DNA of 64,000 nt, from positions 23,422 to 87,421 of the IMG/VR virus record IMGVR_UViG_3300031669_000010; one strand, given 5' to 3'. Of the stretch, positions 9,982 through 26,136 are shown piece by piece (position 1 is the stretch's first letter; every line of letters starts with the position of its first letter). The position numbers and the translations under genes are program-made. This DNA is from a virus. Taxonomy: Duplodnaviria > Caudoviricetes. Under the pieces are notes generated by a model, which was not told the DNA's origin, did not search any database, and saw only the letters and a list, made by a program, of their open reading frames with translations.

Positions 9982-10362
9982 ATGAAAATAAAAAATGATT
10001 TCGTTACAAATAGTTCTTCCTCATCATTTGTATTTGAAGCATCGGAAAAGATTTTGCGAAAAGATATCGAGAAACATATGAGATTCTATTACGCTGAATG
10101 CTTCCGGTGCTTCACTAACAAAAAGAGTTTAACAGAGTTTACAGAAGCAGGCTACGGAGACTGGGTTTCAAAGGCAAGGGGTGAACCTGCTACATTTTGG
10201 AATATGGATCCATCCTGTTACAGAGAAGCATGTAAGATTTTAAATTGTGGTATGTTTGTCATCTATGCTTCTGTTGACAGGAACGATATGGACAGAGTTG
10301 AGAAGTTCCAGGATCTTGTGGAAGATCGTGGTGGAAGAATAAGAACCAGGAGTGGAGATTAA
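9982..10362 (+). CDS. MKxKxDFVTNSS-motif protein 5
   Basis: MKIKNDFVTNSSSSSF; directly upstream of a radical SAM gene. Confidence 0.75.
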   Translation: MKIKNDFVTNSSSSSFVFEASEKILRKDIEKHMRFYYAECFRCFTNKKSLTEFTEAGYGDWVSKARGEPATFWNMDPSCYREACKILNCGMFVIYASVDRNDMDRVEKFQDLVEDRGGRIRTRSGD

Positions 10363-10363
10363 T

Positions 10364-11410
10364 ATGAGTCAAGTTCGAATCGTAAATTGGCTGCTCACAA
10401 GAAGGTGTAATCTAAAATGTGAGTATTGTGCCATTGTTAAAAACTATAAGGGTAAACCGTCTAGTTATCCGGATATGAGACATTATATCAAACATGAAAT
10501 GCCAACCAATGTAGTCATTAATGCATTAAAGGGATTCAAGATTCATAATCCGAATGTATTTCATATATTCTATGGTGGCGAGCCATTGCTAAGACCTGAT
10601 CTTGCAGACATCATAAATTATTGTAATGAAAATGAAATCTACTATACAGTAATCAGCAACAATACTTCAGGCATTCAAGATCGTATAAGAATGCTATTTG
10701 ACAAAGTTGAATACATTGAGGGGTTCACAAGTTCTGTTGATCCAATCTTCAATGAAATTGGTGCTAAAGAAGACAGAGTCAAAAAGAGTATTGAAGGTCT
10801 GAGGCGATTAAAAGAAATTCAAGCTGCTGGAAAAGTGAAAGATGTTGTTGCTGAAATAACAGTTATGAAACACAATCAAGATCTTTTATACAGACTCATC
10901 CGAGAGTTGAGTGATGAGGAAATATATAGTGATATTACATTCGTTGATATTGCAAAAACTAAGTATTATGATTTTTCAAATGTCTTGGATGAAACATTTT
11001 TAGTTAGACCAACATTTGAACTAGCAGAAGAGTTGATCGACATTATAACTGATAATCGTTTATTGGTTCATATGAAGGACATTCTAATACCTAAGATGTT
11101 CGATACACTTCCATCGAATTTTGACTGTGAGATTGAAAAGGGTTTGCATAACTTGACAATTGATGCTGATGGTTCAATCAGATTGTGTTTAAGAATTAGG
11201 GGTATTGCATCTCCTTCATACAATGTGACTGAACTATTTGATCCAACATATCCTGAACTTATTTCTGCGGATGTGTATAGTGCAATAAAAGGTGATAAGA
11301 AGCACTACTGTTCGTTGTGTAACCATTCCTGTTTAATGATGAGTCAGTATTTTGATACAACTAATGAGGAAGTGGATACACTAATACATTCCGATAAACG
11401 GAGGGAGTAA
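10364..11410 (+). CDS. Radical SAM protein with C-terminal Cys (SPASM/twitch-like) extension
   Basis: CNLKCEYC, YGGEPLLR, C-terminal C...IDADGSIRLC...CSLCNHSC. Confidence 0.88.
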   Translation: MSQVRIVNWLLTRRCNLKCEYCAIVKNYKGKPSSYPDMRHYIKHEMPTNVVINALKGFKIHNPNVFHIFYGGEPLLRPDLADIINYCNENEIYYTVISNNTSGIQDRIRMLFDKVEYIEGFTSSVDPIFNEIGAKEDRVKKSIEGLRRLKEIQAAGKVKDVVAEITVMKHNQDLLYRLIRELSDEEIYSDITFVDIAKTKYYDFSNVLDETFLVRPTFELAEELIDIITDNRLLVHMKDILIPKMFDTLPSNFDCEIEKGLHNLTIDADGSIRLCLRIRGIASPSYNVTELFDPTYPELISADVYSAIKGDKKHYCSLCNHSCLMMSQYFDTTNEEVDTLIHSDKRRE

Positions 11411-12148: not shown

Positions 12149-14746
12149 ATGTTAAATGGGTATCTAACAGATGAAATCCGAATTAATTCTAAATATGCAC
12201 ATGTATATAGATCTGAATATCCCGATAACCTTGAATCAGATTCTATTCCAATTGTTCATAGACATTCTTTGTTGACAGAAGATTATCTGCGACGCATGAC
12301 AAGTGGAATTTCTGGAAATGGAATGAGTATTCTTCCTCCAAATTGCAGATACATTGAAAATGTAAAACAAGGTAATATTGTGATAATTGAAGAACCTCCT
12401 GCATTTAGAACAATTTCAATCTATATGAGCTTTACTAAGGAAGTTGAAAGATTGAAGGCGGAAGGAAAACTTGCTGAGTATGGTTTTGATGAAGATTTTG
12501 CAAGAGAGTCAATGGCCAAAAGATTCACTCTAGCATTTCCATATGTCATATTTATTTTATACTTCACAAGATACAATGAATTGTCCTGTGGCCAAGCATA
12601 TCTGAGAGTAGCTAGACTTTCAGGCCTATCTGATTACCTTCTAAAAATACCACTCACAAACATTGCAGAGAGTCAGTATATCTGTTTTGGTTCTAAGGCT
12701 GGTGGTTCGGCAGAAACATTAAATGCAGGTGTTGAAAAAGTAATCGACGTATTTTGGGGAGCTGAGTTTAACACCGACTATACATATAACTATACTGCAT
12801 ATAGAGATATTGCCGGCGTAAATTCTTATATGGAATGGCAAGCATTGTCAGCAAGTAATCCCATGTTCATTTATAATGTTGATTGGATGAAGATTCCAAT
12901 GAATATTGGGCAGGCCCTTGATGAAGTAAAACGCCATTATAAACTGTCAAGTTCGTCTGATATACAATATAAAAATCTTTCCAGTATGTTTTCAGTACCT
13001 CTGGATTCAGGAAAGGATGAGGCTCCAACTAAGAGATCTCGAAAGAAATATAGATTGTTTTATGATGTTGCCCAAGGTATATTTCTTGATGAGAATTACT
13101 ATGTCCATGTGGGTGATTCGTTCCAAAACAAAAGTGGGACGATGTTTTTCATCAACTCCTTTATTAGTTTTGCAGACAGTGGTGATGTTAAATATGTCCG
13201 CGTTGAAAGAGAAGACGGAAGACTTATCGTATTAAAATTTACCAAATCAGTCTCACACTATTTAAAAGAGCGAACTAAAGCTCTTCGTTATGAAGCAGAA
13301 GGAATTCTGAAAAATGGTGTTGTCGTTAAAGAGAATGATATTATCAAACTGACAAATGCAATTGGAGATGCGGTATATAAGAAAGTCACTTTCATTCGTA
13401 AATCCCAAGAGGGATTCCACGAAGGACGGTTTGGTGATGGATTTTACATTCTAGAAAACACCGAAGGTGAAGTATATGATGTTACAAATCCAGAATATCG
13501 AGGTATTAAACTGAAGAAAAATACAGATTATCTGTACATGAAAACTGAAAATGAGGTACCATTCAACCAAGGGTGTATTGTAAATTTCACAGGCATAGAA
13601 GCAGATAATCGTGGAAGATTAAATATCGACATGACTCACAAAGACAATGATTTTAGAGGGAGTCCGTACAAAATTCCATTGAATCAGTCAAACTCAAACA
13701 TACGACTGTATGAAATGGATCAAGTTAAACCTCTACCACCTGTTTTCAGACTTGGTCGAAAGTTATTAGTCAACAGAAAGAATGATAGAAATCTGTATGA
13801 AAATTCTGTCTTCGGAACTCCGTATGGTATTATATACGATTCTGGATATGGTAATATGGATAAAGCGAATCCCGATGAAATAAAGAAATACATGCTTGGG
13901 GAAGATAAATTCCAAGTTAAAAGTTTCGATTTAGACATTGAGTTTAATATAGGAGATAAGGTTGTCGTGGCTGATTTTGAAAATCCGATCAATATGCTTT
14001 CAGTGAAAACCATTCAGGGGTTTAAGTTCACAGAAGGAGTTGGAGATATTCATTTCATATTAGCAGATAAACAGGGCAACCTACAACAAGAAGAATATGT
14101 GAAAGGAAGATATGGAACAATTCATACCGGCAGAATTAGAAAGATTTCAAATGTTTTTGGTGAACTGACAGCTGGAACAAAGATCAAATCTAATATAGCT
14201 GGATTCCCACACTTCGCAAAAAAAGACACAAATATTATCATTGGTTTTCTGACTGATACAGGAGGACCAGATCCATTGGTTCTATGCTCCAATTGCTGTA
14301 CAATGTGGTATAGAGATGTGGTGGAATGCTTTAAACATATTCCAATAAAGTCAGCTGAATGGGCGAAAACAGCACATTCTCCAATTGATGTAGCTAAGAT
14401 TAAATATCAACCAGGTGACATTCTTATAGGAACTGGTAGTAGCGATTATAGATCCAATACCGGATGGTTGTTATTTAAGGTCACTGGCTCAAACAGTATT
14501 AAAGCGATGGATTTTAATTACTATAATGCATGGCCAGATTATTTCACTCTGGATAGATATATTACGACTAATTCAAAATTTGATTGTATCCCTAACCCAC
14601 GAATCGGTCCCAAGGCTCAAAGTGAGATGGAAATAATTCGATCATGGCCGAATATGCATGGTTATTATTTTTCATGTGATAAAGCCAAATTCCGATTCCT
14701 AAACGATGAGAGGAGTATGGTGAATGTTCAAAGTAGTTCTGAATGA
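12149..14746 (+). CDS. Prokaryotic E2-like protein (family D/PRTRC-B-like) with long C-terminal extension
   Basis: LAFPYVIF...IPLTNIAESQYICFG (Cys179)...FWGAEFNTD; directly upstream of JAB, E1 and Ubl. Confidence 0.75.
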   Translation: MLNGYLTDEIRINSKYAHVYRSEYPDNLESDSIPIVHRHSLLTEDYLRRMTSGISGNGMSILPPNCRYIENVKQGNIVIIEEPPAFRTISIYMSFTKEVERLKAEGKLAEYGFDEDFARESMAKRFTLAFPYVIFILYFTRYNELSCGQAYLRVARLSGLSDYLLKIPLTNIAESQYICFGSKAGGSAETLNAGVEKVIDVFWGAEFNTDYTYNYTAYRDIAGVNSYMEWQALSASNPMFIYNVDWMKIPMNIGQALDEVKRHYKLSSSSDIQYKNLSSMFSVPLDSGKDEAPTKRSRKKYRLFYDVAQGIFLDENYYVHVGDSFQNKSGTMFFINSFISFADSGDVKYVRVEREDGRLIVLKFTKSVSHYLKERTKALRYEAEGILKNGVVVKENDIIKLTNAIGDAVYKKVTFIRKSQEGFHEGRFGDGFYILENTEGEVYDVTNPEYRGIKLKKNTDYLYMKTENEVPFNQGCIVNFTGIEADNRGRLNIDMTHKDNDFRGSPYKIPLNQSNSNIRLYEMDQVKPLPPVFRLGRKLLVNRKNDRNLYENSVFGTPYGIIYDSGYGNMDKANPDEIKKYMLGEDKFQVKSFDLDIEFNIGDKVVVADFENPINMLSVKTIQGFKFTEGVGDIHFILADKQGNLQQEEYVKGRYGTIHTGRIRKISNVFGELTAGTKIKSNIAGFPHFAKKDTNIIIGFLTDTGGPDPLVLCSNCCTMWYRDVVECFKHIPIKSAEWAKTAHSPIDVAKIKYQPGDILIGTGSSDYRSNTGWLLFKVTGSNSIKAMDFNYYNAWPDYFTLDRYITTNSKFDCIPNPRIGPKAQSEMEIIRSWPNMHGYYFSCDKAKFRFLNDERSMVNVQSSSE

Positions 14747-16310
14747 TGGGCAGAATGAAATGCCCGAAGACGATATTTATTATATTATTGGAAAGGAGGG
14801 TGTGTACCTCAAGAAGAAACTTGGGGTGATGGATAGTCTTGCACCTGTAAAAAATATCTCCATTTTGCAAAGTGTAATTTCATCTGCACAAATGCATATA
14901 ACACCCATACCAGGCATGTGGATTGCCAAAGTTATGAACTTCTTCCGCGAAGTTTATAAAGAGTATAGATCCGAAGCCATTGTTCTGTTGTTTTACAATG
15001 AGGAAACAGGACATCATAAAATTGTTCCCCCTCATCAAAAAGTTGCAGGAGCATCATGTGACTATGATAAAGGGATCACTATAGAAGGTTATACAATGAT
15101 CGGAACCATTCATAGTCACGGAAATATGTCAGCATTTCATTCCGGTACTGATGATAAAGACGAAGAACATTTTGATGGTCTTCATATGACATTTGGTGAT
15201 TTGGACGAAGACTATCCAAGTATATCAGCATCAATTGTGTCAAATGGTTTCCGGCAAATGATTGAACCAGAACAATATATTAAAGATTTGGTTTGTATGG
15301 CCGAGACAAATTCTGTTGATAATAAAGCTGTTAGAACGGTTTATAAATGGGTTGACGGGGTGCTTACTGAAGATGAAGAAGCTGCTCCAAAATATACCTA
15401 TCAATGGAAAAAGTTTGACAGGCGATATGATGTTACGTGCTCAGACCGTGAGAGAATCTTTAACAAGAAGTGGATGCGCATGGTCGAAAAGGGTACCTAT
15501 ACTTACAAGAGTTACAATGCTGGTTCCGGTTACAGAAGTCTATATGGATGGACTGGTCATGGATGGGGTCAAAATTATGATCGTGGTGCATGGTCCCAAG
15601 CTGGTCGACTCCTACCACCCGGAGCACAAACACAAACGAAAGGTGTACCTCCTCAGAACGTTGGCGTTACAGTTAAACCTCTTGAATTTCCCCCGCATAC
15701 ACAAGATGGAGACTTTATGCCTTGCGTGACATGTACTCATAGAATGTGCAAACTTACCTCTGAAATTGAAGAGGATGATTTTGAAGAAATGTATTATTGT
15801 GAGAAGTGTGGAGAGATTGTTAAGGAGGACGCAGATTTGGTCATTATATGTTCAACATGTAAAACCGATGATCATCTTATTCTCTTAGATAAAGATGATC
15901 TATTGACCAATCAATATATACCAGGTGATGAATACGACCACATGTTTGACAGGGATTCTGCTGGAGTTATCAGACAAGAAGAAACCCTTTATGTTAAATG
16001 CAAAGAATGTGGTAATGGTTTCCATATGTTTGAGGACGATTCTATATGTCCTTTCTGTTATGCCCAAGTAAACGAGAGTTATTCCTCGGAAGATGCCTTA
16101 GAGGTTCAAACCGAAAACGATTCAGGGGCCTTTCTCAATCAAGAAACAGAAGACGCAAACAATGCAGCATTATTGGAAGCGGCGAATCGAGAAGATGAAA
16201 CGCTCGAAAGAATACCCGAACCAGGATCAAATGTAATACCGATACCTGAAAAGAAAGACACCGGTTTAGCAGCAATGTTCCGGAAAGTCTTCTCAAAGGA
16301 AAGAATATAA
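14724..16310 (+). CDS. JAB/JAMM metallopeptidase (PRTRC-A-like) with Cys-rich C-terminal region
   Basis: E84 plus H130-S-H132-x7-S140-xx-D143 JAMM motif; five CxxC pairs in the C-terminal half. Confidence 0.9.
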   Translation: MFKVVLNDGQNEMPEDDIYYIIGKEGVYLKKKLGVMDSLAPVKNISILQSVISSAQMHITPIPGMWIAKVMNFFREVYKEYRSEAIVLLFYNEETGHHKIVPPHQKVAGASCDYDKGITIEGYTMIGTIHSHGNMSAFHSGTDDKDEEHFDGLHMTFGDLDEDYPSISASIVSNGFRQMIEPEQYIKDLVCMAETNSVDNKAVRTVYKWVDGVLTEDEEAAPKYTYQWKKFDRRYDVTCSDRERIFNKKWMRMVEKGTYTYKSYNAGSGYRSLYGWTGHGWGQNYDRGAWSQAGRLLPPGAQTQTKGVPPQNVGVTVKPLEFPPHTQDGDFMPCVTCTHRMCKLTSEIEEDDFEEMYYCEKCGEIVKEDADLVIICSTCKTDDHLILLDKDDLLTNQYIPGDEYDHMFDRDSAGVIRQEETLYVKCKECGNGFHMFEDDSICPFCYAQVNESYSSEDALEVQTENDSGAFLNQETEDANNAALLEAANREDETLERIPEPGSNVIPIPEKKDTGLAAMFRKVFSKERI

Positions 16311-17002
16311 TGAGCGATACTACTGAGCTTTATATTTCTGTTATTGGTCTTGGTGGGGTTGGAACTATTTTAATCGAAAGATTATGTAGATTCCTAAACT
16401 ATTCAAAAGATCTTACCGCAGAATTCCTTCTGGTGGACGGAGATGAGTATGAGCAGAAGAATTATGAAAGGCAGGAGTTTTCAAGAATTGGAAACAAAGC
16501 CGATATAAAAGCCACCGAGTTGGAAATGAAGTTTAAAGATTTGCGGTTCGATACGCTCGAAGCCTTCATAGACGAATCAAATATTGAGAACGTTATTAAA
16601 GAAGGTGATATTGTTTTTCTATGTGTTGATAATCACAAATCCAGAATGATTGTTTCAAATTACTGTAAAAAATTACAAGATGTTATTTTAATTTCTGGCG
16701 GGAATGATTTCACAGATGGTAATGTACAGATTTACGTCCGGAAGGCGGGGGCCGATTTAACTCCGGATCTATGTGCATATCATCCTGAAATTGCAAATCC
16801 CGATGATAGGTTACCGCAAGAAATGAGCTGTCAAGAGCTCGCAAACTCAGATCCTCAGCTATACTTTGCTAATTTGGGGGTCGCTACTCTTATGTGTTGG
16901 GCTTTCTACAACGCTGTTGTTAGAGGGCAATATGAACGGTCTGAGGTTTACTTCGATCTTACAAGTATGACCACAGATGCAAAAATCCGAATGGTGAAAT
17001 AA
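16310..17002 (+). CDS. E1-like ThiF/MoeB adenylating enzyme
   Basis: GLGGVG, DGDEYEQKNYERQ, LCVDNHKSR, SGGN, SCQE (Cys174, putative catalytic) followed by QLYFAN. Confidence 0.9.
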   Translation: MSDTTELYISVIGLGGVGTILIERLCRFLNYSKDLTAEFLLVDGDEYEQKNYERQEFSRIGNKADIKATELEMKFKDLRFDTLEAFIDESNIENVIKEGDIVFLCVDNHKSRMIVSNYCKKLQDVILISGGNDFTDGNVQIYVRKAGADLTPDLCAYHPEIANPDDRLPQEMSCQELANSDPQLYFANLGVATLMCWAFYNAVVRGQYERSEVYFDLTSMTTDAKIRMVK

Positions 17003-17028: not shown

Positions 17029-17493
17029 ATGGCTAGAAGTTTTTCGAGAGAAGCACTGGAAGAAAAGACGTCCAAGGAACTTAAAAGAATGTGTGTTGAT
17101 GAGCTCAATATCGTCGGCGTCACCAAGAAACCCAAGGACGATGTTATCAACGCCATTATGGCACAGTACGGCGCGGCATCTAAACCCGCTGCAATCGCCA
17201 AAGATACGAAGCTGACCGGTATCAAATTCACGGGTCAAAGTACCCTGACGAAACCGGATTCTCCGTTTGGCTCCCGTACAACCACAACCATTCATGTTTC
17301 CTGTGGTGCATCCTCAGGTAACTTCCCAGTAGCCGGCAAAACAGTGAAAGACGTTGGGGACTTCCTTCGTGAGGTTCTGAACGTGGATCGTCTGTCCACC
17401 GGACTGGTCAATGGTAAAGAAGTCGGCGCAGACTATATTCTGAGCTCCGGCGACAACCTGGAATTCCTGAAACCAGCAGGAAAAAAGGGTTAA
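17029..17493 (+). CDS. Ubiquitin-like (beta-grasp) protein with N-terminal Rho_N/HeH-like module
   Basis: C-terminal VSCGA...GKTVKDV...LVNGKEV..DYILSSGDNLEFLKPAGKKG*; N-terminal LEEKTSKELKRMC.DELNI.G.TK.PKDDVINAI. Confidence 0.85.
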   Translation: MARSFSREALEEKTSKELKRMCVDELNIVGVTKKPKDDVINAIMAQYGAASKPAAIAKDTKLTGIKFTGQSTLTKPDSPFGSRTTTTIHVSCGASSGNFPVAGKTVKDVGDFLREVLNVDRLSTGLVNGKEVGADYILSSGDNLEFLKPAGKKG

Positions 17494-17502
17494 AATAAAT
17501 GC

Positions 17503-17526
17503 GGAGGGAGCCTTCGGGTTCCCTCC
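17503..17526. other. Stable cUUCGg hairpin right after the Ubl gene
   Basis: GGAGGGAGCC-TTCG-GGTTCCCTCC; no U-tract on the + strand, so possibly a stabilising/processing hairpin or a minus-strand terminator. Confidence 0.7.
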
Positions 17527-17546
17527 CATACAAAGGACTGAAAAAT

Positions 17547-18146
17547 ATGAATCCAAATACACAAAGAATTCTTGCTGAGAATAGCATTGATAAAATTTCT
17601 TTTTATTTCATCAATAGCCCCATTGTAAATAATGCATTTACAGTGTGTATTCTCATAAACTCTTTTGAGAAGAGAATCGAAGCAAGAGGAGTTTCTATTT
17701 GTTCTCTCATGGATACTTTTTCCAAATCCGAAGGTAAGAATAAAGCGTTTGGACGTGCAGTTAAAGCTATCGCAAGGAGAGAAAATAACTGGAAGATTAA
17801 TGGGTCCGGTCGAGATGATGAATTTGTTCCACGGTCGTTCAAAGTGAAAACAGAAAAAGATGATGATGGTTTTAGGGGCGGAGTTGCACCCGAACTTCAA
17901 CGAATAAATCCACACCTGCCAATCAGAGTTCAAGATAGTGGTAGGTTTAAAAAATATTCATTTGAAATTCCTGCAAGTTATCCCATGAGACTGGCAAACT
18001 CTTTATTCAAATATAAGTCACACTACCGACCTGTTCCAGTTGGAGATGAAGAGAACGAGCTTCTTAAGAGGCTAACTATATTTACAGAACCAATCGAAAA
18101 TGAAAGTTCCAATTTACTTGTTTCAACATTTGGAATCGAAGATTAA
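17547..18146 (+). CDS. Hypothetical phage protein
   Basis: AAGGA RBS; ARGVSICSLMDTFSKSEGKNKAFGRA motif recalled from small phage proteins. Confidence 0.7.
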   Translation: MNPNTQRILAENSIDKISFYFINSPIVNNAFTVCILINSFEKRIEARGVSICSLMDTFSKSEGKNKAFGRAVKAIARRENNWKINGSGRDDEFVPRSFKVKTEKDDDGFRGGVAPELQRINPHLPIRVQDSGRFKKYSFEIPASYPMRLANSLFKYKSHYRPVPVGDEENELLKRLTIFTEPIENESSNLLVSTFGIED

Positions 18147-18160
18147 GGTTCTTAGTTCGA

Positions 18161-18195
18161 GGGGGGTTTCTAACAACCCCCCACATTTATTTTTT
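18161..18195 (+). terminator. Putative intrinsic terminator
   Basis: GGGGGGTT-TCTAAC-AACCCCCC followed by a T-rich tract. Confidence 0.7.
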
Positions 18196-18213
18196 AAAAG
18201 GAGACTATAAAAC

Positions 18214-19074
18214 GTGGTGTACAAAAATGTAGTAATAATTGGTCTCGGTACACTTGGTGGGTATATCGCAGAGGCTGTAACCAATTTAGACAGCACCGAA
18301 AAAATAGTAATAATAGACCACGATATAGTTGAACAGAAGAATTTGAAAAATTCCATATACAGGCAAATTGATATAGGAAGTCCTAAGGTAGAAGCTTTGA
18401 AAGATATTCTTCAACATGAACAACCAGATGTTGAAGTATGGGCGTTTCATGCAAAGTATGAAGAAGGCAAGACAAAAATTCCAAAAGAAGATTTGGTTAT
18501 TGATTGCAGGGACTTTACCTATAATAGACAAAGTGAAATTGATGCAAGATTCTATATATCATCAAGATATTTAATGGCTGATTTTAGAAAGAATATTAAA
18601 TACAAACAGCAGCAAGTAGGAAAATACATTTTACAATTATCAAGAAATGATTTGAGACATGCTGCGTCAATTGGTTCTATGTTAATTCATAGTAATACAA
18701 TTGAATCTCTAATAAAAAGCCAATCTGTTCAAAAATATGAACTCGATTATGTCAAACACACGGACAATTGTAGATATGACGTTGTGTATGAAAATGTAGT
18801 GGGGGAAGAAAAGTTTGTTAATCTCCCCGATAAGATCGTCCCAATTATGGAGATGAATCAAAAAGGGGATTTAACCATCTTTCTCGGAAGTAGAGTATAT
18901 CCAATTTCTGAATCAGTGATACCAATTAAAAGTTTGGTAAACAGTTCTGATGTGATCTCGAGTCTTGCATCTGTAGTTGCTTGCCAAACAGATTTCAATA
19001 ATTTTGTGATATCTATATTCAAGGAAAATAGTAATGTTTTTATTGAACTTATACCTGATACTGGAGCTGCGTGA
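18214..19074 (+). CDS. Second, divergent ThiF/E1-like protein
   Basis: IIGLGTLGG, DHDIVEQKNL, GSPKVEAL, VIDCRD; lacks the NLxRQ Arg. Confidence 0.78.
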   Translation: MVYKNVVIIGLGTLGGYIAEAVTNLDSTEKIVIIDHDIVEQKNLKNSIYRQIDIGSPKVEALKDILQHEQPDVEVWAFHAKYEEGKTKIPKEDLVIDCRDFTYNRQSEIDARFYISSRYLMADFRKNIKYKQQQVGKYILQLSRNDLRHAASIGSMLIHSNTIESLIKSQSVQKYELDYVKHTDNCRYDVVYENVVGEEKFVNLPDKIVPIMEMNQKGDLTIFLGSRVYPISESVIPIKSLVNSSDVISSLASVVACQTDFNNFVISIFKENSNVFIELIPDTGAA

Positions 19075-19448
19075 TGGAGATAATTAATCATGAGATAACA
19101 GACTATATCAGACCAAGGAAGTTGATTTTTAAAAATGAGATATTTACAATCACCAAATTAGCACAGAAGTTTGAAATTGCTAGTTATGTGATAAAAACTG
19201 TCAATGAAAAAATTGACATGGTTATATTAAACAATCCACATCCAAATGCAATACCAAGGAGTGGTGAGTTTTGTATACCAAATAACTTACGAAAATATGA
19301 GTTGACTCAAAACTCTAAAAATATGATTACTAGCATGTTATCATGCTTCAACTTAGACGATTGTTACTTCACACCTTGGGATGAAATAGAATATGAAAAA
19401 CAAGAGGTGATAGGAGCATATGGAAGAAAATCAGAAGATAACCAATGA
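19071..19448 (+). CDS. Small E2/UBC-like protein (putative)
   Basis: HPN(57-59)-x8-C68 (HPNAIPRSGEFC); overlaps the stop codon of the E1-like gene. Confidence 0.55.
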   Translation: MMEIINHEITDYIRPRKLIFKNEIFTITKLAQKFEIASYVIKTVNEKIDMVILNNPHPNAIPRSGEFCIPNNLRKYELTQNSKNMITSMLSCFNLDDCYFTPWDEIEYEKQEVIGAYGRKSEDNQ

Positions 19449-19641
19449 ACAAATAACAGGTCAGGTCGGATCTATTATTGATGAACTTGCTTCAGCTGGT
19501 AAAAAAGCGATTAGATCGTTCTTTAATTTGATGGTTGAAAGAACGGCTGATACAGCAGGTGATCTAGCTGACAAAGGTGTTGATAAACTGAAACAGACTA
19601 TTGACAAAAAGGTGTCAAATGACAAGATCAAGAAGCATTAG
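19420..19641 (+). CDS. Hypothetical small protein
   Basis: GGAG RBS, operon context. Confidence 0.65.
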   Translation: MEENQKITNEQITGQVGSIIDELASAGKKAIRSFFNLMVERTADTAGDLADKGVDKLKQTIDKKVSNDKIKKH

Positions 19642-19852
19642 TATTGAACAACCATCATTATTGGAGCAAGAAATAGTCCGAATAGTTGATAAAGCTATGA
19701 AAGACTCAAAGGTTCAATTAACAGCAGAAGATATAAGAATAATAGCGCAAGATATTATGCCCGATTTGGACAGAATAATTGCAGATAAGGTTAGTCTACA
19801 TTTTCTTGCTATCGGACAATTTCTAATTGAAAAATTCAGTATGGGAGATTAA
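19619..19852 (+). CDS. Hypothetical small helical protein upstream of RNAP beta'
   Basis: AAGGTG RBS, operon context. Confidence 0.6.
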   Translation: MTRSRSISIEQPSLLEQEIVRIVDKAMKDSKVQLTAEDIRIIAQDIMPDLDRIIADKVSLHFLAIGQFLIEKFSMGD

Positions 19853-19854
19853 GA

Positions 19855-22566
19855 ATGCCTAAAATACTAAATTATGCAGATTTCTGTGAAAACTTAGACG
19901 AAGTGACGTCTCTAAAAACATTTGGTAAGAAAAAGTTTCACCCAGCAGGATTATTCTCTGAGCAAATATTTGGCCCAGTGAGAAATTATACATGTCAGTG
20001 TGGAATTTATCATGGGGTATCAAAGTCCGGTGGTAAATGTGCTGAATGCGGAGTCGCGGTTATCAACAGCGATTCGAGAAGAAAAACATTTGCAAAAATT
20101 GTAATTCCAATCCAAGTTGTGAATCCTCTATTCTACGACTTGCTGGTAGATCTAGCCGGAAGGGGTTTTAAGAAAGCACTTGACGATCTCATGAGGAATG
20201 ACAAAAGTGTTCTATACATAGATAGTGACGAATTTGTTACCACGGATGAAGGTAGTGTTCCACAAGGGGTCCAAAAATGGGAACGAGCTGAAGCGATCAA
20301 AGTTCTTGTTGAAGGATATGCAAATGATATGGTCGAATACGGGGCGCCTGAATGGCAACTCGTATTAGATAACATTAGCAATCTTCTTATAGATACAATT
20401 ATTGTATTGCCCCCTGATCTAAGACCTACATCAAAGAGTTCAGGGGAAACAAAACAATTGATGGACAAAATCAATCGTTACTATGTCCAAATACTCACTA
20501 AGAAGGAGATAATGAGAGAAACAGTTGTAGATGTTCAAAGAGATAAAGCTCTCTATTATACCTACTTCAAACAATTACAAAAAGACGTAAGTGAGTTATA
20601 CACACGAATACTGGAAAAGATGGCAAAAAAAGAGGGGTTGATTAGAGGGAATATTCTCGGTAAGAGAATTGACTTTTCAGGTCGCGCAGTCATCATACCA
20701 GATCCAACGCTTTCATTAACTGAATGTAAGCTTCCATATTTAATGGTACTTGAAATATTCAAACTACCGATCGCCAAACGAATCATTCAACTTGGAAAAT
20801 TCAAGTTACTCAATAAGGCAATTGATTATGTTAATAAGTGTATTGAAGACAGATCTCCAGTTTTATTGAGAGTTTGTGAAGAGGTAACAAACGATCAGTA
20901 TTGTATACTGAACAGACAACCATCTCTTCATAAACTGGGTATGCTTGGTTTTAAGATACTGATTACATTAGATCAAGTAATCAAAATACATCCACTTGCA
21001 TGTCCTCCATTCAATGCAGATTTTGATGGGGATCAAATGGCGGTATATATACCAATTTCAAATGAGGCCAAAGAGGAGATCATCGCTAAGATATTGATAT
21101 CCAAAAATCTTAGTAGTCCTGCAAATGAAAGTCTGACAACAACACCAAGTCAAGATATAATTCTTGGAATTTACTATTTAACATCAATGGAATTCTCAGA
21201 CAGGACAGTTAAATACAAAGGGAAGACAATCCCAATTGGTCAGGCTGAGTTCAATCGACAACTTCCAGAGAATTATCCTTTGGTTGAAGGAACAATTTCA
21301 GAGAAAGAACTCCTATTTGTGCTGAATAATATTAAGAATAGATACACAGAAGATGAAACAGTTGAAGTTCTTGATAATATAAAAAAGACTGGATTCAAAT
21401 TTGCAACTTTGTACGGATCAACTCTGTCACTGAAAGATTTTCCAATTGAGGGAGCGGAAGCGATAAGGGATGATATTTACTCACGTACCGAGTTACGAGA
21501 TCAACTTATTGCATTTTCAGATCCAAGTCTTATTTCAGAGTTGAAAGAAAAATTCAAATACTCATATATGATTGAGTCTGGCGCAAGAGGTAGCTGGGAT
21601 CAGGTAAAACAACTTATTCTATCGAGAGGATTCATTTCAAATTTCGATGGAGAGATTTTACCTCATCCAATTAAAAACTCTTTGGTTGATGGTTTGACAC
21701 AAAAAGAGTTTTTCTATTCAACATATGGTTGCCGAAAGGGACTTCTTGATGTTGCATTGAATACAGGAACGTCTGGGTATCTATCAAGAAAGTTAATTTT
21801 CACATGCGCCAATTTACAAATTGACGAAGATGTTGATGACTGTGGTACAGAAGATTTATTAGAGGTTGATGTTAAAACAAAACGAAAGGCCAGAATGTTA
21901 CTTAACAGATGGACTCTCAATGAAGAAGACAACACCCTTTATAAAATTACACATGAAAACTATAAGGACATCATTGGTAAGATGATTTATATACGAAGCC
22001 CAATTTTATGTAAAGATCCAAAAATCTGTAAAAAGTGCTACGGTGATTTATATAAAAATTTAAATAGCCGCTTCATTGGTATTCTCGCAGCTCAAACATT
22101 GGGTGAGCGTGGAACCCAATTGGTTTTAAGAACTTTCCATACTTCAGGATCAGCAGTTATTAAGGGGCAGAATAGCGAAGATAATGCTAGTTCATCCATG
22201 AAACAGAGAGATATTATTGGAGATCTTGCATCCGTTGCTGAACTTTTGCACAAATTTAAAGGCAAGACATATACAATGATAGTCGATGAATTATTTGATG
22301 TGTATGATAAAGAAATCCATCATGTTCATTTTGAATGTGTTGTCGCTCAATTGATGTGGAAGGACCATATGAAATGGCGTCTATTAGAAGATCGTGAAAA
22401 GATAGAACCGAATTATTATAGTATTCAATCTGTACCGAATCAAGAGAGTTGGATACTGGCAATGGCATTCTCTAATCCAAAGAGATCAATATTACAAGGT
22501 ATTCTGTATGAAGGTAGATATTCGGGCGTCATGGATAAAATCCTTAAAGGAGAAAAAATCACATGA
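19855..22566 (+). CDS. rpoC: Phage multisubunit RNA polymerase beta'-like subunit
   Basis: GLFSEQIFGP, CQCG..CAECG zinc site, GKRIDFSGRAVI, LNRQPSLH, NADFDGDQMAV catalytic loop, TSGYLSRKL, GTQLVLRTFH. Confidence 0.96.
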   Translation: MPKILNYADFCENLDEVTSLKTFGKKKFHPAGLFSEQIFGPVRNYTCQCGIYHGVSKSGGKCAECGVAVINSDSRRKTFAKIVIPIQVVNPLFYDLLVDLAGRGFKKALDDLMRNDKSVLYIDSDEFVTTDEGSVPQGVQKWERAEAIKVLVEGYANDMVEYGAPEWQLVLDNISNLLIDTIIVLPPDLRPTSKSSGETKQLMDKINRYYVQILTKKEIMRETVVDVQRDKALYYTYFKQLQKDVSELYTRILEKMAKKEGLIRGNILGKRIDFSGRAVIIPDPTLSLTECKLPYLMVLEIFKLPIAKRIIQLGKFKLLNKAIDYVNKCIEDRSPVLLRVCEEVTNDQYCILNRQPSLHKLGMLGFKILITLDQVIKIHPLACPPFNADFDGDQMAVYIPISNEAKEEIIAKILISKNLSSPANESLTTTPSQDIILGIYYLTSMEFSDRTVKYKGKTIPIGQAEFNRQLPENYPLVEGTISEKELLFVLNNIKNRYTEDETVEVLDNIKKTGFKFATLYGSTLSLKDFPIEGAEAIRDDIYSRTELRDQLIAFSDPSLISELKEKFKYSYMIESGARGSWDQVKQLILSRGFISNFDGEILPHPIKNSLVDGLTQKEFFYSTYGCRKGLLDVALNTGTSGYLSRKLIFTCANLQIDEDVDDCGTEDLLEVDVKTKRKARMLLNRWTLNEEDNTLYKITHENYKDIIGKMIYIRSPILCKDPKICKKCYGDLYKNLNSRFIGILAAQTLGERGTQLVLRTFHTSGSAVIKGQNSEDNASSSMKQRDIIGDLASVAELLHKFKGKTYTMIVDELFDVYDKEIHHVHFECVVAQLMWKDHMKWRLLEDREKIEPNYYSIQSVPNQESWILAMAFSNPKRSILQGILYEGRYSGVMDKILKGEKIT

Positions 22567-22748
22567 GAGACCCAGCCCGAATTGAACGAATACTGGGTTT
22601 AATCAGGAAGGTCTGGTATGATGCTCCAGACCTTCGCCTGACCCAACTTATTATGAATGAACTGAGAATGCATAGCGATCCTTATTATATTGAGGATGAC
22701 GTTCTCGAAAAAGCATTGAAAGCATACTGCAAAGATAGGAGGATTTAA
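22563..22748 (+). CDS. Small conserved phage protein
   Basis: MRDPARIERILGLIRKVW...PDLRLTQL signature; inserted between the RNAP genes. Confidence 0.7.
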   Translation: MRDPARIERILGLIRKVWYDAPDLRLTQLIMNELRMHSDPYYIEDDVLEKALKAYCKDRRI

Positions 22749-22751
22749 AAC

Positions 22752-25700
22752 TTGAAAATAATTAATCCAATAGCTGCAATACAAGACGAAGATAATAACA
22801 TCTTCACAATCAGACAAAGAGACTATGACAATATTTTACCTATCGTGCAAGAAATAGTTAAACCTGTTGAGGAAATTGGTTTCACAATCAATGATATTAG
22901 TTTGAAAGATTCACGTTTTTCATCGGGAGAGCTTGCCAAGACTCTTAAACAAACATTGGCTATAAAATTACAAAAAGGAACTTCTGAAATTGATCTTAGT
23001 ATTTTCATTCCCAAGCTTGTTGATGGAAACTATATTTATATCAACGGACGAAGAAAAATTCCTTTACTACAGCTTTTTGACATTCCGATTGTAACAAGAG
23101 GAGAAAGCATAAAGCTTCGCACAAATGTAGCAACCATAATGGTATTTTCAGATAAAGAAGCCCCATTCATTCGGATTAGCTTCTTGGGTAAAAAGATACC
23201 ACTTTCTTTGATACTGCTTGCGTATCATGGAATAGAACTTTGTAAAATCAAATATGATTTAGATGGTGATATTGACGAAGAGAGCGAAAACCTTTTTGAA
23301 ATACTCAGATATGATTTGAGAAGTTATATTGAAGAATCAGTTGGATATGCTCCTGATGATTTTTTATTAGAACTCGGAAGGATGTATTCAAGATATAATG
23401 CAAAATCAAAGGGGGAAGATGTACTATATGCACTTGATTTAATTCCAAAAGTTGATATAATCACAGCACGATTTATGACTTACCCAACAATCTTGGAAGA
23501 GATTTGTGAAATATTAAAGACAGGTGAAGTCGATGATATGGAGTACACAAACAAACGGGTGAGATGTTTTGAGTATATGGTAATTGCAAGAATTTCAAAG
23601 ATCATATTCGATTTGTGTTTTTCAAATCGAACTGCAAGACAACCGAAGTTCAATATCAACTCAACACAAATCTTATCAGATTGTAATGTTTCAGATATTG
23701 TTCAATTTGATTTCTCAATCAACCCAATTGAGGAATTGACAAAACTATCAAGAATAAGTCTTCTTGGTCCCGGCGGATTTAAAAGGGAAAACATTCCCAA
23801 GCATTTGAGAGATATTTGCCCAAGTATGTTTGGCCGTCTATGTCCTGTTGATACTCCAGATAGAGATAACTGTGGGGTTCTTCAAAATGTTGTCCCGAAT
23901 GTACATCTTGATCAAAATTTGAAATTTGAAGCAGAGGTTCAGGATAAATTTCCTCTCTCAATTCCTGTTTCAATGACTCCATTCTTAAAGCATGACGACC
24001 AAACAAGATTACAAATGGCTGCATCCCAAATGAGGCAGGCGATCATGCTGAGAGAATTTGATGTTCCTCTTATCAGTTCAGGGTCAGAAGGACTATATAC
24101 ACCACACACTCAATTTGTCAAGATGGCTAAAAAACCTGGAGAGGTTGTTCATATTGACAAAGAGTATATTATAGTGGTATATGATGATAAAGATGCTGAC
24201 ATATTTGATATTCGTTATAGAAAAATTTATGTTGAACACATGGATTTCATGAATATCTATGTTAAACCAGGAGACCGGTTTAGTGCAGGAGACATTTTAG
24301 CAGAAAGTAATTTCTGTAAAAATGGAAAAATTAACATTGGCAAAAATCTTCTGACTGGTGTTATGGTTTATTATGGTAACAACTATGAGGATGGAATCGT
24401 TATTTCAGATAGACTTGTCAATGAGGACACCCTAACGTCAGTACACTATAAGGATTTATCATTCACAGTAACCCCAGATAAAGTTCTTCTATCATTAAAG
24501 GATGGTGAATATAAACCACTACCAGATGAACTTGAAACAATTGAAAAGGGTGATACATATGCCATTTTGCAAAAGCTTAACTCTGACGAACAATATTCGG
24601 TATTTGCCGAGAAGGTACTGTTAGAAACCCGGAAAAAGTATATCGTTTCCGAAGTTAATTTATATGGTAACTCTTGGAACGAAGAGGTGCCTGAATATAA
24701 AGAGTGGCTTGAATCCAAACTCTCGAAGCAACAAGACAAAGAGAAGTATCTTCAAAAAGTCCTGAAAGATGTTATGTCGAAAGACGAAGCAATGAAACTT
24801 ATCAGGGAAAAGAGTCTTGACAAATTCTCATTCACCGGTAAGTATAAAGAGAAGCGTGAGAGAATTAACGGATTATATGTTGAAATGTATGGAGTTCATT
24901 TCAGGAGAGTTCAGGTTGGTGATAAATTAGCTAATAGGCATGGCAATAAAGGAGTCATATCTAGAATTGTTCCTCATGATAAAATGCCACAGCTACCTGA
25001 TGGACGCCACATGGATATTTGCATCAATCCACTTGGTATCATATCGAGAATGAATATTGGTCAATTATATGAAATGCATTTGGCCATGGCGGTTGATGCA
25101 TTGAAGCAAAACATATTAAAGATGTTAGATAAAGATGTTGAGCAGAGCGAGATAAAAGAATACCTGCTGGGGTTCATAAAGATTGTTGATCGGACAGAGG
25201 ACAATTGGTATTATACACAATTCTCCGAACAGATGCCGGAACAACTATCATTGGACTTCATCAAAAATCTTACAATCATCCAAGCTCCATTTCAATCTTG
25301 CAAATTACAGCAGGTTGATGAAGCAATGCAATATGTTGGAAGCGATTTTAAATTTCCAATATATGATCCATTGTCAAAAGTTAAATTGGCAAATCCTGTT
25401 GCAGCTGGTTTCATTTACTTCTTCAGGATGGTTCATATTGCAGAGGAAAAACTTGCTGCAAGAGGGATTGGTGCATATGCAAGACGAACCCTCCAACCAT
25501 TAGGTGGTCGAAAGAATAAGGGTGGTCAGAGATGTGGTGAAATGGAAACTGCGTGTTTGATTGGGCATGATGCTCCAATTAATCTACATGAGTTTCTTAC
25601 AACCAAGTCCGATTGTATTGATTTGAAAAATAATTACATTCGCAATTTCATCGATCCAAATTTAACAGATGAAAGCAAAGAATTAGATACAACACCCGAG

Positions 25701-25754
25701 TCAGTTAAACTGCTTAATTCATATCTAATAGTGATAGGAGTTGATCAAAGATGA
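22752..25754 (+). CDS. rpoB: Phage multisubunit RNA polymerase beta-like subunit
   Basis: GRLCPVDTPD..NCG, HDDQTRLQMAASQMRQA, NYEDG, GDKLANRHGNKG, GGQRCGEME; TTG start. Confidence 0.95.
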   Translation: MKIINPIAAIQDEDNNIFTIRQRDYDNILPIVQEIVKPVEEIGFTINDISLKDSRFSSGELAKTLKQTLAIKLQKGTSEIDLSIFIPKLVDGNYIYINGRRKIPLLQLFDIPIVTRGESIKLRTNVATIMVFSDKEAPFIRISFLGKKIPLSLILLAYHGIELCKIKYDLDGDIDEESENLFEILRYDLRSYIEESVGYAPDDFLLELGRMYSRYNAKSKGEDVLYALDLIPKVDIITARFMTYPTILEEICEILKTGEVDDMEYTNKRVRCFEYMVIARISKIIFDLCFSNRTARQPKFNINSTQILSDCNVSDIVQFDFSINPIEELTKLSRISLLGPGGFKRENIPKHLRDICPSMFGRLCPVDTPDRDNCGVLQNVVPNVHLDQNLKFEAEVQDKFPLSIPVSMTPFLKHDDQTRLQMAASQMRQAIMLREFDVPLISSGSEGLYTPHTQFVKMAKKPGEVVHIDKEYIIVVYDDKDADIFDIRYRKIYVEHMDFMNIYVKPGDRFSAGDILAESNFCKNGKINIGKNLLTGVMVYYGNNYEDGIVISDRLVNEDTLTSVHYKDLSFTVTPDKVLLSLKDGEYKPLPDELETIEKGDTYAILQKLNSDEQYSVFAEKVLLETRKKYIVSEVNLYGNSWNEEVPEYKEWLESKLSKQQDKEKYLQKVLKDVMSKDEAMKLIREKSLDKFSFTGKYKEKRERINGLYVEMYGVHFRRVQVGDKLANRHGNKGVISRIVPHDKMPQLPDGRHMDICINPLGIISRMNIGQLYEMHLAMAVDALKQNILKMLDKDVEQSEIKEYLLGFIKIVDRTEDNWYYTQFSEQMPEQLSLDFIKNLTIIQAPFQSCKLQQVDEAMQYVGSDFKFPIYDPLSKVKLANPVAAGFIYFFRMVHIAEEKLAARGIGAYARRTLQPLGGRKNKGGQRCGEMETACLIGHDAPINLHEFLTTKSDCIDLKNNYIRNFIDPNLTDESKELDTTPESVKLLNSYLIVIGVDQR

Positions 25755-25945
25755 ATGAAGAGGATTATATGATGGGTTCATGGACTTATACTAATTACAC
25801 CTCTTCCACTGACAGTACTTCTGGTTATTGGATGAAACCCCAAAAAGTTTCTCTTAGAGATGTTATCGAAGAGGTCAGTAAGGAGCAGGAAGAAGATATA
25901 GAAAAACACTTACCCATATTCGACCCAAAGGATTTAGACATATGA
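25751..25945 (+). CDS. Acidic 64-aa protein ending FDPKDLDI
   Basis: GGAG RBS, ATGA overlap. Confidence 0.6.
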   Translation: MNEEDYMMGSWTYTNYTSSTDSTSGYWMKPQKVSLRDVIEEVSKEQEEDIEKHLPIFDPKDLDI

Positions 25946-26136
25946 GTAGAGCAGACAGTGGACCGGAGGTCATAGTTACACATCCCGATCCCGATGATCT
26001 ATGGGATATTGATGTTGATTTTGGTGAAGAAGGGCACACCCATGAAGATGAGTATTATAATAGTGAAGTAAAAGCTGCCTATAAAGAAAAGTCAGTAAAA
26101 CAACAACTCTTCGACATCAAGGATCTGGACTTATGA
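25942..26136 (+). CDS. Acidic 64-aa protein ending FDIKDLDL
   Basis: ATGA overlap; shares the C-terminal motif with the upstream ORF. Confidence 0.6.
   Translation: MSRADSGPEVIVTHPDPDDLWDIDVDFGEEGHTHEDEYYNSEVKAAYKEKSVKQQLFDIKDLDL

Follow-up and report, generated by a model that had tools for sequence, protein, structure and literature searches.

The window, a stretch of 64,000 nucleotides, carries directly ahead of the phage RNA polymerase genes a pair of genes coding for a ThiF/E1-family protein (E1b) and a protein with an E2 signature (E2b). A G+C-rich hairpin divides E1b from the upstream E2-JAB-E1a-Ubl-p215 genes, while E1b and E2b are translationally coupled by a TGATG overlap (Table 1). 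The start of E2b was placed at ATG 19074, and not at GTG 19071, because the relatives begin with M-E/K-I. Of the 125-residue overlapping protein with an HPN-x8-C motif described in the first-pass annotation, the overlap and the motif were thus retained, whereas its length was corrected to 124 aa; with the shifted start, the cysteine numbered 68 in that annotation is Cys67 here.

Table 1 Features of the E1b-E2b locus and the adjoining RNA polymerase genes
Feature	Position	Strand	Basis and remarks
G+C-rich hairpin GGGGGG...CCCCCC with T-rich tail	18161..18195	+	8 pairs, 6 of them G-C; stem 18161-18182; terminator-like
Shine-Dalgarno GGAG of E1b	18200..18203	+	Read from sequence, inside AAAGGAGA
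E1b, 286 aa, ThiF/E1-family, GTG start at 18214	18214..19074	+	Pfam ThiF, E 4e-17
E1b adenylation domain, residues 1 to about 189	18214..18780	+	Structure model
Length-variable low-confidence linker, residues about 180-198	18751..18807	+	pLDDT and alignment
E1b C-terminal domain, ~85 aa, residues about 199-286	18808..19071	+	AF2 whole-protein model
Invariant tail T283-G284-A285-A286, stop codon next	19060..19071	+	43-sequence alignment
E2b, 124 aa, minimal E2-like protein, ATG 19074	19074..19448	+	TGATG overlap with E1b stop
Candidate active site H56-P57-N58, eight residues, Cys67	19239..19274	+	Invariant in 43 sequences
Second cysteine Cys97 in N-L-D-D-C-Y-F-T-P-W	19362..19364	+	Invariant in 43 loci
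Small ORF s73	19420..19641	+	In only part of the relatives; no above-threshold family match
Small ORF s83, probable start ATG 19619	19601..19852	+	In most relatives, directly 5' of beta'; no above-threshold family match
RNA polymerase beta'-like, 903 aa, unsplit	19855..22566	+	Pfam RNA_pol_Rpb1 domains 2, 3 and 5 above cut-offs
RNA polymerase beta-like, 1000 aa, unsplit	22752..25754	+	Pfam RNA_pol_Rpb2 domains 3, 6 and 7; position conserved

The annotation had placed a terminator at 18161 and a new ribosome-binding site ahead of the pair, and two small ORFs followed by rpoC/rpoB without an obvious terminator behind it. This layout was borne out, with no terminator-like site found on the + strand from 18183 to 25987. 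Most of 45 distinct related loci have an equivalent G/C hairpin just 5' of the E1b ribosome-binding site, often without the U-tract, and the AAAGGAGA motif upstream of E1b is kept in relatives. Among the upstream genes, the free Ubl gene (17029-17493) codes for a product ending in ...AGKKG, and E1a carries NxxRQ and an invariant Cys174; JAB and E1a matched PRTRC_A and PRTRC_ThiF (NCBIfam), all NCBIfam scores being far under the family cut-offs. No alpha-like RNA polymerase subunit gene was recognised near beta'/beta by Pfam, no sulfurtransferase or rhodanese gene and no CD-NTase family match were seen in the block, and the scanned neighbours gave no DUF6527 match.

Homologues were found for E1b (274, of conserved length) and for E2b (116), the E2b family amounting to 318 clusters at 50% identity. 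All relatives of either protein come from metagenomic or viral contigs, and a pattern-seeded search of 185,579 prokaryotic reference genomes (GTDB) yielded none. The pair lies in the same place in 52/52 IMG/VR loci and in 5 other contigs, and in all 57 loci the order is bigE2-JAB-E1a-Ubl-(p215)-E1b-E2b-small ORFs-beta'-beta, with E1a and E1b found together and beta' downstream of E2b each time; the synteny with rpoC on which the earlier reading had depended is therefore universal in these relatives. Both are real genes, conserved far beyond chance, and the E1b-E2b pair belongs to the core gene set of an uncultivated jumbo-phage clade. Since the whole 25-kb block keeps its gene order, the position of the pair next to the polymerase genes says little about a functional link. 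In many relatives E1b follows immediately after the Ubl gene because p215 is absent there, and the six ubiquitin-system-like genes then form one cluster.

No DNA match to the window was found among GenBank phages; E1b gave weak N-terminal Rossmann matches only and beta' about 30% identity at most. None of these deposited phages belongs to the clade carrying the pair. The clade was seen in sediment, soil and aquatic metagenomes. A literature search for a description of the E1b-E2b pair found none.

Adenylation domain and C-terminal tail of E1b

E1b is a genuine E1/ThiF-family adenylation-domain protein. Pfam ThiF (PF00899) was matched over residues 5-116 with 62.6 bits (cut-off 28.1), and in the AF2 model (mean pLDDT 83.6) an E1-type Rossmann-like adenylation fold is complete within residues 1-189 and is nearest to Cap2. 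In the defence library, too, the best HMM matches of E1b, reaching E 4e-14, were to PADLOC Cap2-type 'E1-E2' models. By sequence, the Rossmann half matched MoeB (E 4.5e-9) and ThiF (1.5e-8) best, and MoeB, ThiF, MccB and PaaA were among the best matches of E1b in sequence and structure alike.

The residues marking the domain are G10xG12xxG15, D35, N43, K58, D97-C-R99-D100, R105, R112, D123 and Y138. Both motifs noted earlier for the ThiF-like protein are present, namely the GxGxxG loop (G10-L-G-T-L-G15) and N43-L-K-N-S47 at the position where MoeB/ThiF have N-L-x-R-Q. All 43 sequences keep the GxGxxG loop, D35, K58 and D97 unchanged, and these residues align to their MoeB counterparts; the invariant nucleotide-binding residues speak against an inactive E1-like protein, which the first-pass annotation had named in its refuting outcome. 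Decayed paralogues were likewise rejected, the pair being conserved and its catalytic-type residues invariant. The E1b family has no invariant catalytic cysteine: the sole near-invariant one is C98 within D-C-R-D, and position 124 is Cys in 81% of the relatives and Phe in the window. An invariant tyrosine, Y138, lies in the low-confidence loop 124-143.

Behind the adenylation domain, pLDDT falls below 50 at residues 180-187, 189-191 and 193-198, where relatives have insertions and deletions. The C-terminal domain that follows is predicted as helix, beta-hairpin, helix, beta-hairpin and free tail (AF2: H208-217, E220-225, E230-236, H244-255, E264-271, E274-281). It gave no sequence match in Pfam, a PDB profile search or the ESM Atlas, and hhalign against the Ubl of the same phage returned a probability of 0.1%; short proteins homologous to the domain alone were also searched for, and none was found.

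E1b always ends in ...E-T-G-A-A-stop. The terminal T-G-A-A is the same in 43/43 distinct sequences, down to 34% identity and including ones from a different search pattern, and is directly followed by the stop codon in each. The tail is exposed in the model, with pLDDT below 50 at 284-286. All four synonymous codons are in use at each of the four positions while the residues are identical; the tail is under selection at the protein level. For the same reason, conservation as a by-product of a downstream Shine-Dalgarno sequence was ruled out. Another operon protein as donor of the tail was also ruled out, as none has a conserved C-terminus; elsewhere in the block only the free Ubl has one. A role of this tail in docking or autoinhibition would be equally compatible with its invariance. 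The C-terminal domain with its invariant tail and the Ubl-adjacent cluster of the relatives go beyond what had been annotated before.

The E2-like partner

HPN and Cys do not vary among 43 sequences of E2b, with identities as low as 20%, and the spacing between HPN and Cys is 6-8 residues; in a wider set of 132 sequences H56 and C67 remain invariant and P57 and N58 are at least 90% conserved. Cys97 is not kept in this wider family. The AF2 model, built with no templates (pLDDT 91.7), was searched with Foldseek, and the best 50 matches were all E2 structures, with weak scores. In an all-against-all VIA search about 30 of 50 rows were of E2/UBC type, including 13 of the first 15, while the best BFVD match was a giant-virus E2 at E 0.22, a level at which unrelated proteins score similarly. 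PDB profile matches to E2s, among them Pex4p and 1yrv, reached E 0.35-0.8 with HPN...C aligned residue for residue. UQ_con was matched below threshold by 2 of the 132 relatives (best E 0.0033), and was the only Pfam family matched by more than one of them.

Of the E1-like/E2-like pair annotated earlier, the E1 family and the E2 signature thus stand, and the UBC fold is weakly matched, mostly by E2 structures. E2b may adopt a minimal UBC-like fold and would act as a thioester-forming E2. Like the eukaryotic-type E2s (UQ_con; Pex4p, UBE2K, UbcH5), it has H-P-N, then 6-8 residues, then Cys, the spacing in Pex4p and 1yrv being eight residues, and it shares with them the beta-meander, the active-site loop and the following helix. 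Unlike them, it has 124 aa and not about 150, and its model lacks three helices of E2s, one N-terminal and two C-terminal. A complex prediction for E1b and E2b from custom-built alignments (score 0.01, mark 0.32) spoke neither for nor against binding.

A candidate second conjugation module and its relation to known systems

The reading that we favour, tentatively and at somewhat less than even chances, is a second self-contained module: E1b would activate the C-terminus of its own tail and transfer it to Cys67 of E2b. On this view E1b would be catalytically active, an adenylating enzyme of the Cap2/MoeB type that works with no catalytic cysteine and bears its own substrate tethered at the C-terminus. 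The tail of one protomer would be adenylated at Ala286 after entering an adenylation site, either that of an E1b dimer or the protomer's own; the activated carboxylate would go to Cys67 of E2b, directly or, in the manner of Bub E1s, by way of the invariant loop residue Tyr138, and E2b would hand the tail on to a target lysine. The module would be transcribed together with the beta'/beta RNA polymerase genes. That adenylation acts on the tail, that E2b forms the thioester and that a protein target exists are our inferences; RNA polymerase or its small partners as this target is a guess from position only. That E1b is a self-modifier, the whole enzyme or a released domain of ~90 aa being attached as a ubiquitin-like tag to lysines of a target such as the phage's RNA polymerase or a host protein, seems rather unlikely.

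With a C-terminal domain on E1b itself that ends in an invariant T-G-A-A, a built-in modifier or tail is the most economical substrate. E1-like genes, E2-like genes and conserved tails (...AGKKG and ...ETGAA), of which the cluster holds two each, also fit two parallel cascades. Alanine is acceptable as terminal residue, since Cap2 systems, the closest relatives that have been characterised, conjugate a conserved C-terminal Gly or Ala, conserved only where E1/E2 are present (PMC10097602). A cysteine-free E1b is plausible with Bub E1s as precedent: in the Bub (6E/DUF6527) pathways, with BubCD as E1, BubB as E2 and BubA as Ubl, the E1 is minimal, of homodimer type and without catalytic Cys, and an invariant Tyr is the sole conserved crossover-loop residue (bioRxiv 10.1101/2024.11.21.623953). 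In E1b, the invariant Y138 lies in a comparable flexible loop.

Several results count against a self-contained module. The tail ends in G-A-A and not in Gly or Gly-Gly as in Ubl modifiers, the C-terminal domain has no sequence similarity to ThiS, MoaD or ubiquitin, Arg at the NLxRQ Arg position occurs in none of 43 E1b relatives, the window E2b gave no match in Pfam, PHROGs, NCBIfam or PADLOC, and no precedent was found for an E1 that conjugates itself to targets.

Cap2 of type II CBASS (PDB 7TSQ/7TO3; PMC10097602) is an E2-E1 fusion conjugating the C-terminus of the CD-NTase. Its substrate is an enzyme C-terminus and not a free Ubl, and the candidate tail of E1b is likewise on an enzyme; here, however, the tail is on the E1 itself. 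Unlike Cap2, E1b and E2b are separate genes, E2b has no sequence match to Cap2 models, and there is neither a CD-NTase nor an effector beside the pair, next to which lie small ORFs and RNA polymerase genes; the pair belongs to phage core genes and not to a bacterial defence island. In contrast to the thioester-forming E1s (UBA1, UBA5, Cap2, BilD), E1b is without the conserved crossover-loop catalytic Cys. With Bub, where BubAB is a fusion, it would share that a pathway component is joined to the modifier. In Bub, however, the Ubl is fused to the E2 and has to be cleaved by a peptidase, whereas the candidate modifier here is the E1b C-terminus with its tail already free, and the scanned neighbours lack a DUF6527 protease; moreover, the Bub E2 uses Ser-His, E2b HPN...Cys.

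The tail pattern of E1b, a hydrophobic strand followed by small residues, resembles MoaD/ThiS. Unlike the present pair, the MoeB/ThiF-MoaD/ThiS and PRTRC cassettes are without an E2-like partner and a fused C-terminal domain, and the sulfur-transfer partners of the MoeB/ThiF systems are missing here. Ubl domains fused to ThiF proteins have been described at the N-terminus of some of them, not at the C-terminus with a free tail (Iyer et al. 2006).

Competing explanations and biological meaning

E1b might instead serve, much as in the first option of the first-pass annotation, as a second branch on the free Ubl, activating it and passing it to E2b, with the tail docking E2b and the C-terminal domain as counterpart of the canonical E1 ubiquitin-fold domain or of the UBA5 C-terminal E2-binding peptide; we regard this as unlikely. 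Canonical E1s bear their ubiquitin-fold domain at the same place as the E1b C-terminal domain, and the predicted helix/hairpin/helix/hairpin could equally be a recruiting beta-grasp domain. The proximity of E1b and Ubl in many relatives, in a six-gene cluster with one obvious modifier, points the same way. Yet a canonical-looking E1a is already there for the Ubl, and a conserved hairpin stands between the Ubl gene and E1b. The tail, moreover, consists of small residues, and a docking peptide need not be exactly C-terminal, yet the stop follows T-G-A-A in 43/43 sequences. A heterodimeric E1, with E1a as the catalytic half and E1b as the auxiliary half bringing E2b, in the manner of SAE1/UBA2 or the tandem IAD-AAD of BilD, would account for the presence of E1a and E1b together in every locus and for the NLxRQ Arg and catalytic Cys being present in E1a and missing from E1b. 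It is nevertheless very improbable. Inactive adenylation domains normally lose the GxGxxG/Asp/Lys/Asp residues of the nucleotide site, whereas E1b retains all of them (GxGxxG, D35, K58, D97); homodimeric E1s (Cap2, MoeB) fit E1b equally well or better, E1a and E1b lie in different translational units with the hairpin between them, and the tail is left unexplained.

The presence of MoeB, ThiF, MccB and PaaA among the best E1b matches, the lack of the catalytic Cys and the two E2b cysteines that are invariant among 43 close relatives would agree with non-conjugating chemistry of the MoeB/ThiF or MccB/PaaA type. E1b would then adenylate a C-terminus, yielding a thiocarboxylate or a peptide end that is modified or cyclised, and the role of E2b would be that of a cysteine (persulfide) carrier or some other accessory. 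Alternatively, given the strict co-location with beta'/beta and the lack of a recognised alpha-like gene nearby, the two could be non-enzymatic RNA polymerase subunits. We hold these possibilities, taken together, to be decidedly unlikely. The invariant HPN...Cys and the structural match list consisting of E2s only point to acyl transfer of the E2 type, Cys97 is lost in the wider E2b family, and no recognised sulfurtransferase or rhodanese gene accompanies the block; the invariant catalytic-site residues speak against a purely structural role.

The ubiquitin-like conjugation systems of bacteria (CBASS Cap2, Bil, Bub) are, to our knowledge, so far known as anti-phage defences. In this large jumbo-phage clade the role appears reversed: two candidate ubiquitin-like modules are carried as invariant core genes, one of them heading the RNA polymerase operon. 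New are the minimal E2-like family, unnamed, of 318 clusters and without a Pfam model, and an E1 architecture with an invariant C-terminal tail. Were the tail not a substrate, the genes would still provide a very small, tractable E1/E2 pair for studying the mechanism of cysteine-free E1s. The self-modifier, if true, would be the first E1 acting as modifier and the first conjugation cascade among the core genes of a phage transcription operon. Should the tail prove to be the substrate that is activated, the Cap2 principle, under which the right C-terminus suffices to make any protein a potential modifier, would reach the E1 itself, and these phages would use conjugation for their own programme, possibly for the control of transcription.

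Gene order and distribution

The synteny set comprised five contigs retrieved via E2b relatives (up to 310 kb) and 52 IMG/VR loci retrieved via E1b. Mapping with tblastn gave one invariant gene order in every locus: SMC-like, radical SAM, WYL_2, p126, big E2-like protein, JAB, E1a, Ubl (free ubiquitin-like protein), (p215), E1b, E2b, (s73), s83, beta', (s61), beta, ..., FolE2. The first-pass annotation had placed two small ORFs and then beta' and beta behind the E1-like/E2-like pair, with no obvious terminator; this order was confirmed, and no terminator-like site was found on the plus strand from the E1b hairpin up to 25988. The pair was linked to beta'/beta in all loci mapped, and the linkage is universal. 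p215 is missing from roughly half of the related loci and is therefore an accessory insertion within an otherwise fixed block; where it is absent, the Ubl gene directly precedes E1b, so that six ubiquitin-system-like genes form one cluster in many relatives. Among the small ORFs around beta', s83 was present in most relatives and s73 and s61 were each detected in roughly half; all three are without a family match and could be additional subunits of the polymerase.

Coordinates of features in the window
Feature	Position	Remark
Radical SAM gene	10352-11410	upstream of Ubl operon
Big E2-like protein	12149-14746	marginal Prok-E2_D match, E 0.018
JAB peptidase	14724-16310	
E1a	16310-17002	230-aa ThiF protein
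Ubl	17029-17493	
p215	17499-18146	215 aa; no family match
GGGGGG...CCCCCC-type hairpin	18161-18195	just before E1b ribosome-binding site
E1b	18214-19074 (+)	286 aa, ThiF/E1 family
E1b position 124	18583-18585	
E2b	19074-19448 (+)	124 aa
Small ORFs bracketing beta'	19420-19852; 22563-22748	
beta'/beta RNA polymerase genes	19855-25754	unsplit
FolE2-type GTP cyclohydrolase I	26420-27325	E 3.9e-58; downstream of polymerase genes
Terminase large subunit match	34054-35712	weak, sub-threshold

The window is phage DNA of about 35% G+C and was present in soil-labelled and marine-sediment metagenomes. Homologues of E1b (n = 274, of almost constant length) and E2b (n = 116) were collected, and an E2b profile search of 1.84 billion representatives returned 318 clusters at 50% identity; of the 150 listed, most measured about 100-160 aa, and some were longer or tandem doubles. 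No relatives were found among deposited phages, and pattern-seeded searches of 185,579 species-representative prokaryotic genomes found neither protein. The two genes are thus genuine and occur widely. With the NCBIfam PRTRC system models, JAB matched PRTRC_A (E 9.6e-11) and E1a matched PRTRC_ThiF over nearly its full length (E 7e-10), which appears to link the Ubl operon to ParB/ThiF-related cassettes of plasmids and ICEs. The FolE2 and radical SAM genes were kept in all relatives and taken together may indicate a pathway for 7-deazaguanine-type modification of nucleotides or DNA.

The terminator and new ribosome-binding site reported ahead of E1b were both recovered, as a hairpin with a T-rich tail at 18161-18182 and GGAG at 18200-18203, followed by a GTG start at 18214. 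In most relatives a G/C-rich hairpin lies directly 5' of the conserved E1b ribosome-binding site AAAGGAGA, about 30-70 nt 5' of the E1b start in L006-L057, and is kept whether p215 or the Ubl gene precedes. Because the U-tract is often missing, the hairpin may serve to terminate the phage polymerase, to mark a site of RNA processing or to stabilise the RNA.

The E2-like protein

The small gene does overlap E1b, as first annotated; its start was moved from GTG 19071 to ATG 19074, to which the relatives point and which shares the sequence TGATG with the stop codon of E1b. The protein is thus 124 aa long, and the described HPN, eight residues and Cys were found, with Cys67 as active-site candidate. 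Its AF2 model, built with no templates, was confident (pLDDT 91.7) and consisted of five strands, the HPN loop, Cys67, a short helix, a longer helix (80-90) and two more strands. Profiles from 36 and from 132 family members were searched against the PDB; Pex4p and the E2 1yrv were within the three best matches of each (E 0.35-0.8), with HPN...Cys aligned residue for residue and eight intervening residues in all. No Pfam family other than UQ_con was matched by two or more of these 132, and the UQ_con scores were sub-threshold. P14, I26, H56, P57, N58, C67 and C97 were invariant in 43 sequences; in the set of 132, P14, H56 and C67 were invariant, and P57, N58 and I26 were kept in at least 90%. 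The HPN-to-Cys spacing ranges from 6 to 8. Some distant metagenomic relatives are tandem doubles with one copy lacking the Cys, and in one single-domain relative with a long C-terminal extension Asp replaces Cys (P0250, P0318, P0329, P0379, P0342 for these variants); the tandem and Cys-less forms resemble active/inactive E2-UEV pairs. E2b is probably either a minimal, highly divergent E2-superfamily member or an analogue of that superfamily.

The E1-like protein and its tail

The ThiF-family assignment of E1b held, including G10xG12xxG15 and N-L-K-N-S in place of N-L-x-R-Q. Across 43 sequences with identity down to 34%, invariant residues included G10, G12, G15, D35, D37, N43, K58, D97, R99, R105, R112, D123 and Y138. 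HMM alignments to MoeB and ThiF equated K58 with MoeB K86 and D97 with D130, and the Arg of NLxRQ was absent from the whole family. No invariant cysteine was found among the relatives aligned; C98 sits within D-C-R-D, as in MoeB. E1a, by contrast, keeps N-x-x-R-Q and has an invariant Cys174. Directly after D123, 81% of relatives have Cys at position 124; the window phage and its closest kin have Phe, which would mean loss of a catalytic Cys in this sub-lineage if Cys124 is catalytic in the others. Judged from these alignments, E1b appears to be an active adenylating enzyme of the cysteine-free kind. In the AF2 model (mean pLDDT 83.6), Tyr138 falls within a low-confidence loop (124-143); as a lead, this recalls the Bub E1, in which a catalytic Tyr, forming an oxyester, is the sole residue of the crossover loop to be invariant (bioRxiv 10.1101/2024.11.21.623953).

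After a low-confidence linker of variable length (about 180-198), residues 208-281 were predicted as helix, hairpin, helix, hairpin, and the tail had pLDDT below 50. All 43 distinct sequences end in ...E-L-[IL]-[PE]-[ED]-T-G-A-A followed at once by the stop; this set takes in a divergent branch found via a GTLGG pattern, not the tail pattern. That branch (L038-L054, 34-38% identity to E1b) carries 15-20 inserted residues in the C-terminal domain of E1b, an E2b N-terminal extension of 30-40 residues, the E2b motif Y-Y-L-D-D-C-F-Y and the tail E-L-L-E-E-T-G-A-A, with Glu where other sequences have Pro. All four synonymous codons occur at each of the last four positions, so the tail is conserved as protein and not as a by-product of the overlapping E2b ribosome-binding site. 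The free Ubl is the one other protein of the block whose C-terminus is fixed to a similar degree (...L-E-F-L-K-P-A-G-K-K-G; almost invariant across L001-L057 as ...L-E-F-L-K-P-A-G-[KRSQ]-K-G). Roughly a third of its orthologues carry one extra Cys after the terminal Gly; this Cys would have to be removed, perhaps by the JAB peptidase. No conserved C-terminus was found in beta', beta, the small ORFs, E1a, JAB, the big E2-like protein or E2b.

Candidate conjugation pathways

E1-like genes, E2-like genes and invariant C-terminal tails each occur twice in the cluster, beside a single JAB; two parallel cascades are the simplest reading. E1a and the big E2-like protein would act on the free Ubl, and E1b and E2b on E1b's own tail. 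The nearest characterised relative of E1b is Cap2 of type II CBASS, where the conjugated entity is an enzyme, not a beta-grasp Ubl. The last residue of that enzyme is conserved, as Gly or Ala, only where the operon also encodes Cap2 and Cap3; the CD-NTase of E. cloacae, which is conjugated, has a terminal Ala (PMC10097602). It is on this precedent that the E1b tail is proposed as substrate. From adenylation onward, we infer that Ala286 of the tethered tail would be adenylated, probably in trans within a dimer, passed to Cys67 of E2b directly or via Tyr138, and finally attached to a target lysine.

The C-terminal domain of E1b, for which Pfam, ESM Atlas, PDB profile, hhalign against the phage Ubl and stand-alone homologue searches detected no sequence relatives, could also be a UFD-like or UBA5-like E2-recruiting element, the pair then acting on the free Ubl, which we consider unlikely. 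A heterodimer of E1a and E1b, as in eukaryotic E1s or BilD, is improbable. Non-conjugating chemistry (thiocarboxylate or peptide modification), or co-option of the pair as a polymerase accessory, is doubtful. Adjacency to the polymerase genes is by itself weak evidence of a functional link, because the whole block is equally conserved, and RNA polymerase as target of the E1b-E2b transfer is suggested solely by the shared transcription unit. The earlier interpretation, a second Ubl branch or a module modifying or regulating the polymerase, is partly supported; the underlying observation stands.

No published description of the phage pair was found in the literature. Iyer et al. 2006 report N-terminally fused Ubl domains in some ThiF proteins, and many E1/E2/JAB fusions; the passages covered mention no E1 with a C-terminal tail-bearing domain. 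The E1/E2 machinery type is known; what is new is the invariant C-terminal tail of this E1 and the family of minimal E2-like proteins, which has no name. The E1b-E2b pair belongs to the core genes of an uncultivated jumbo-phage clade and heads its RNA polymerase operon.
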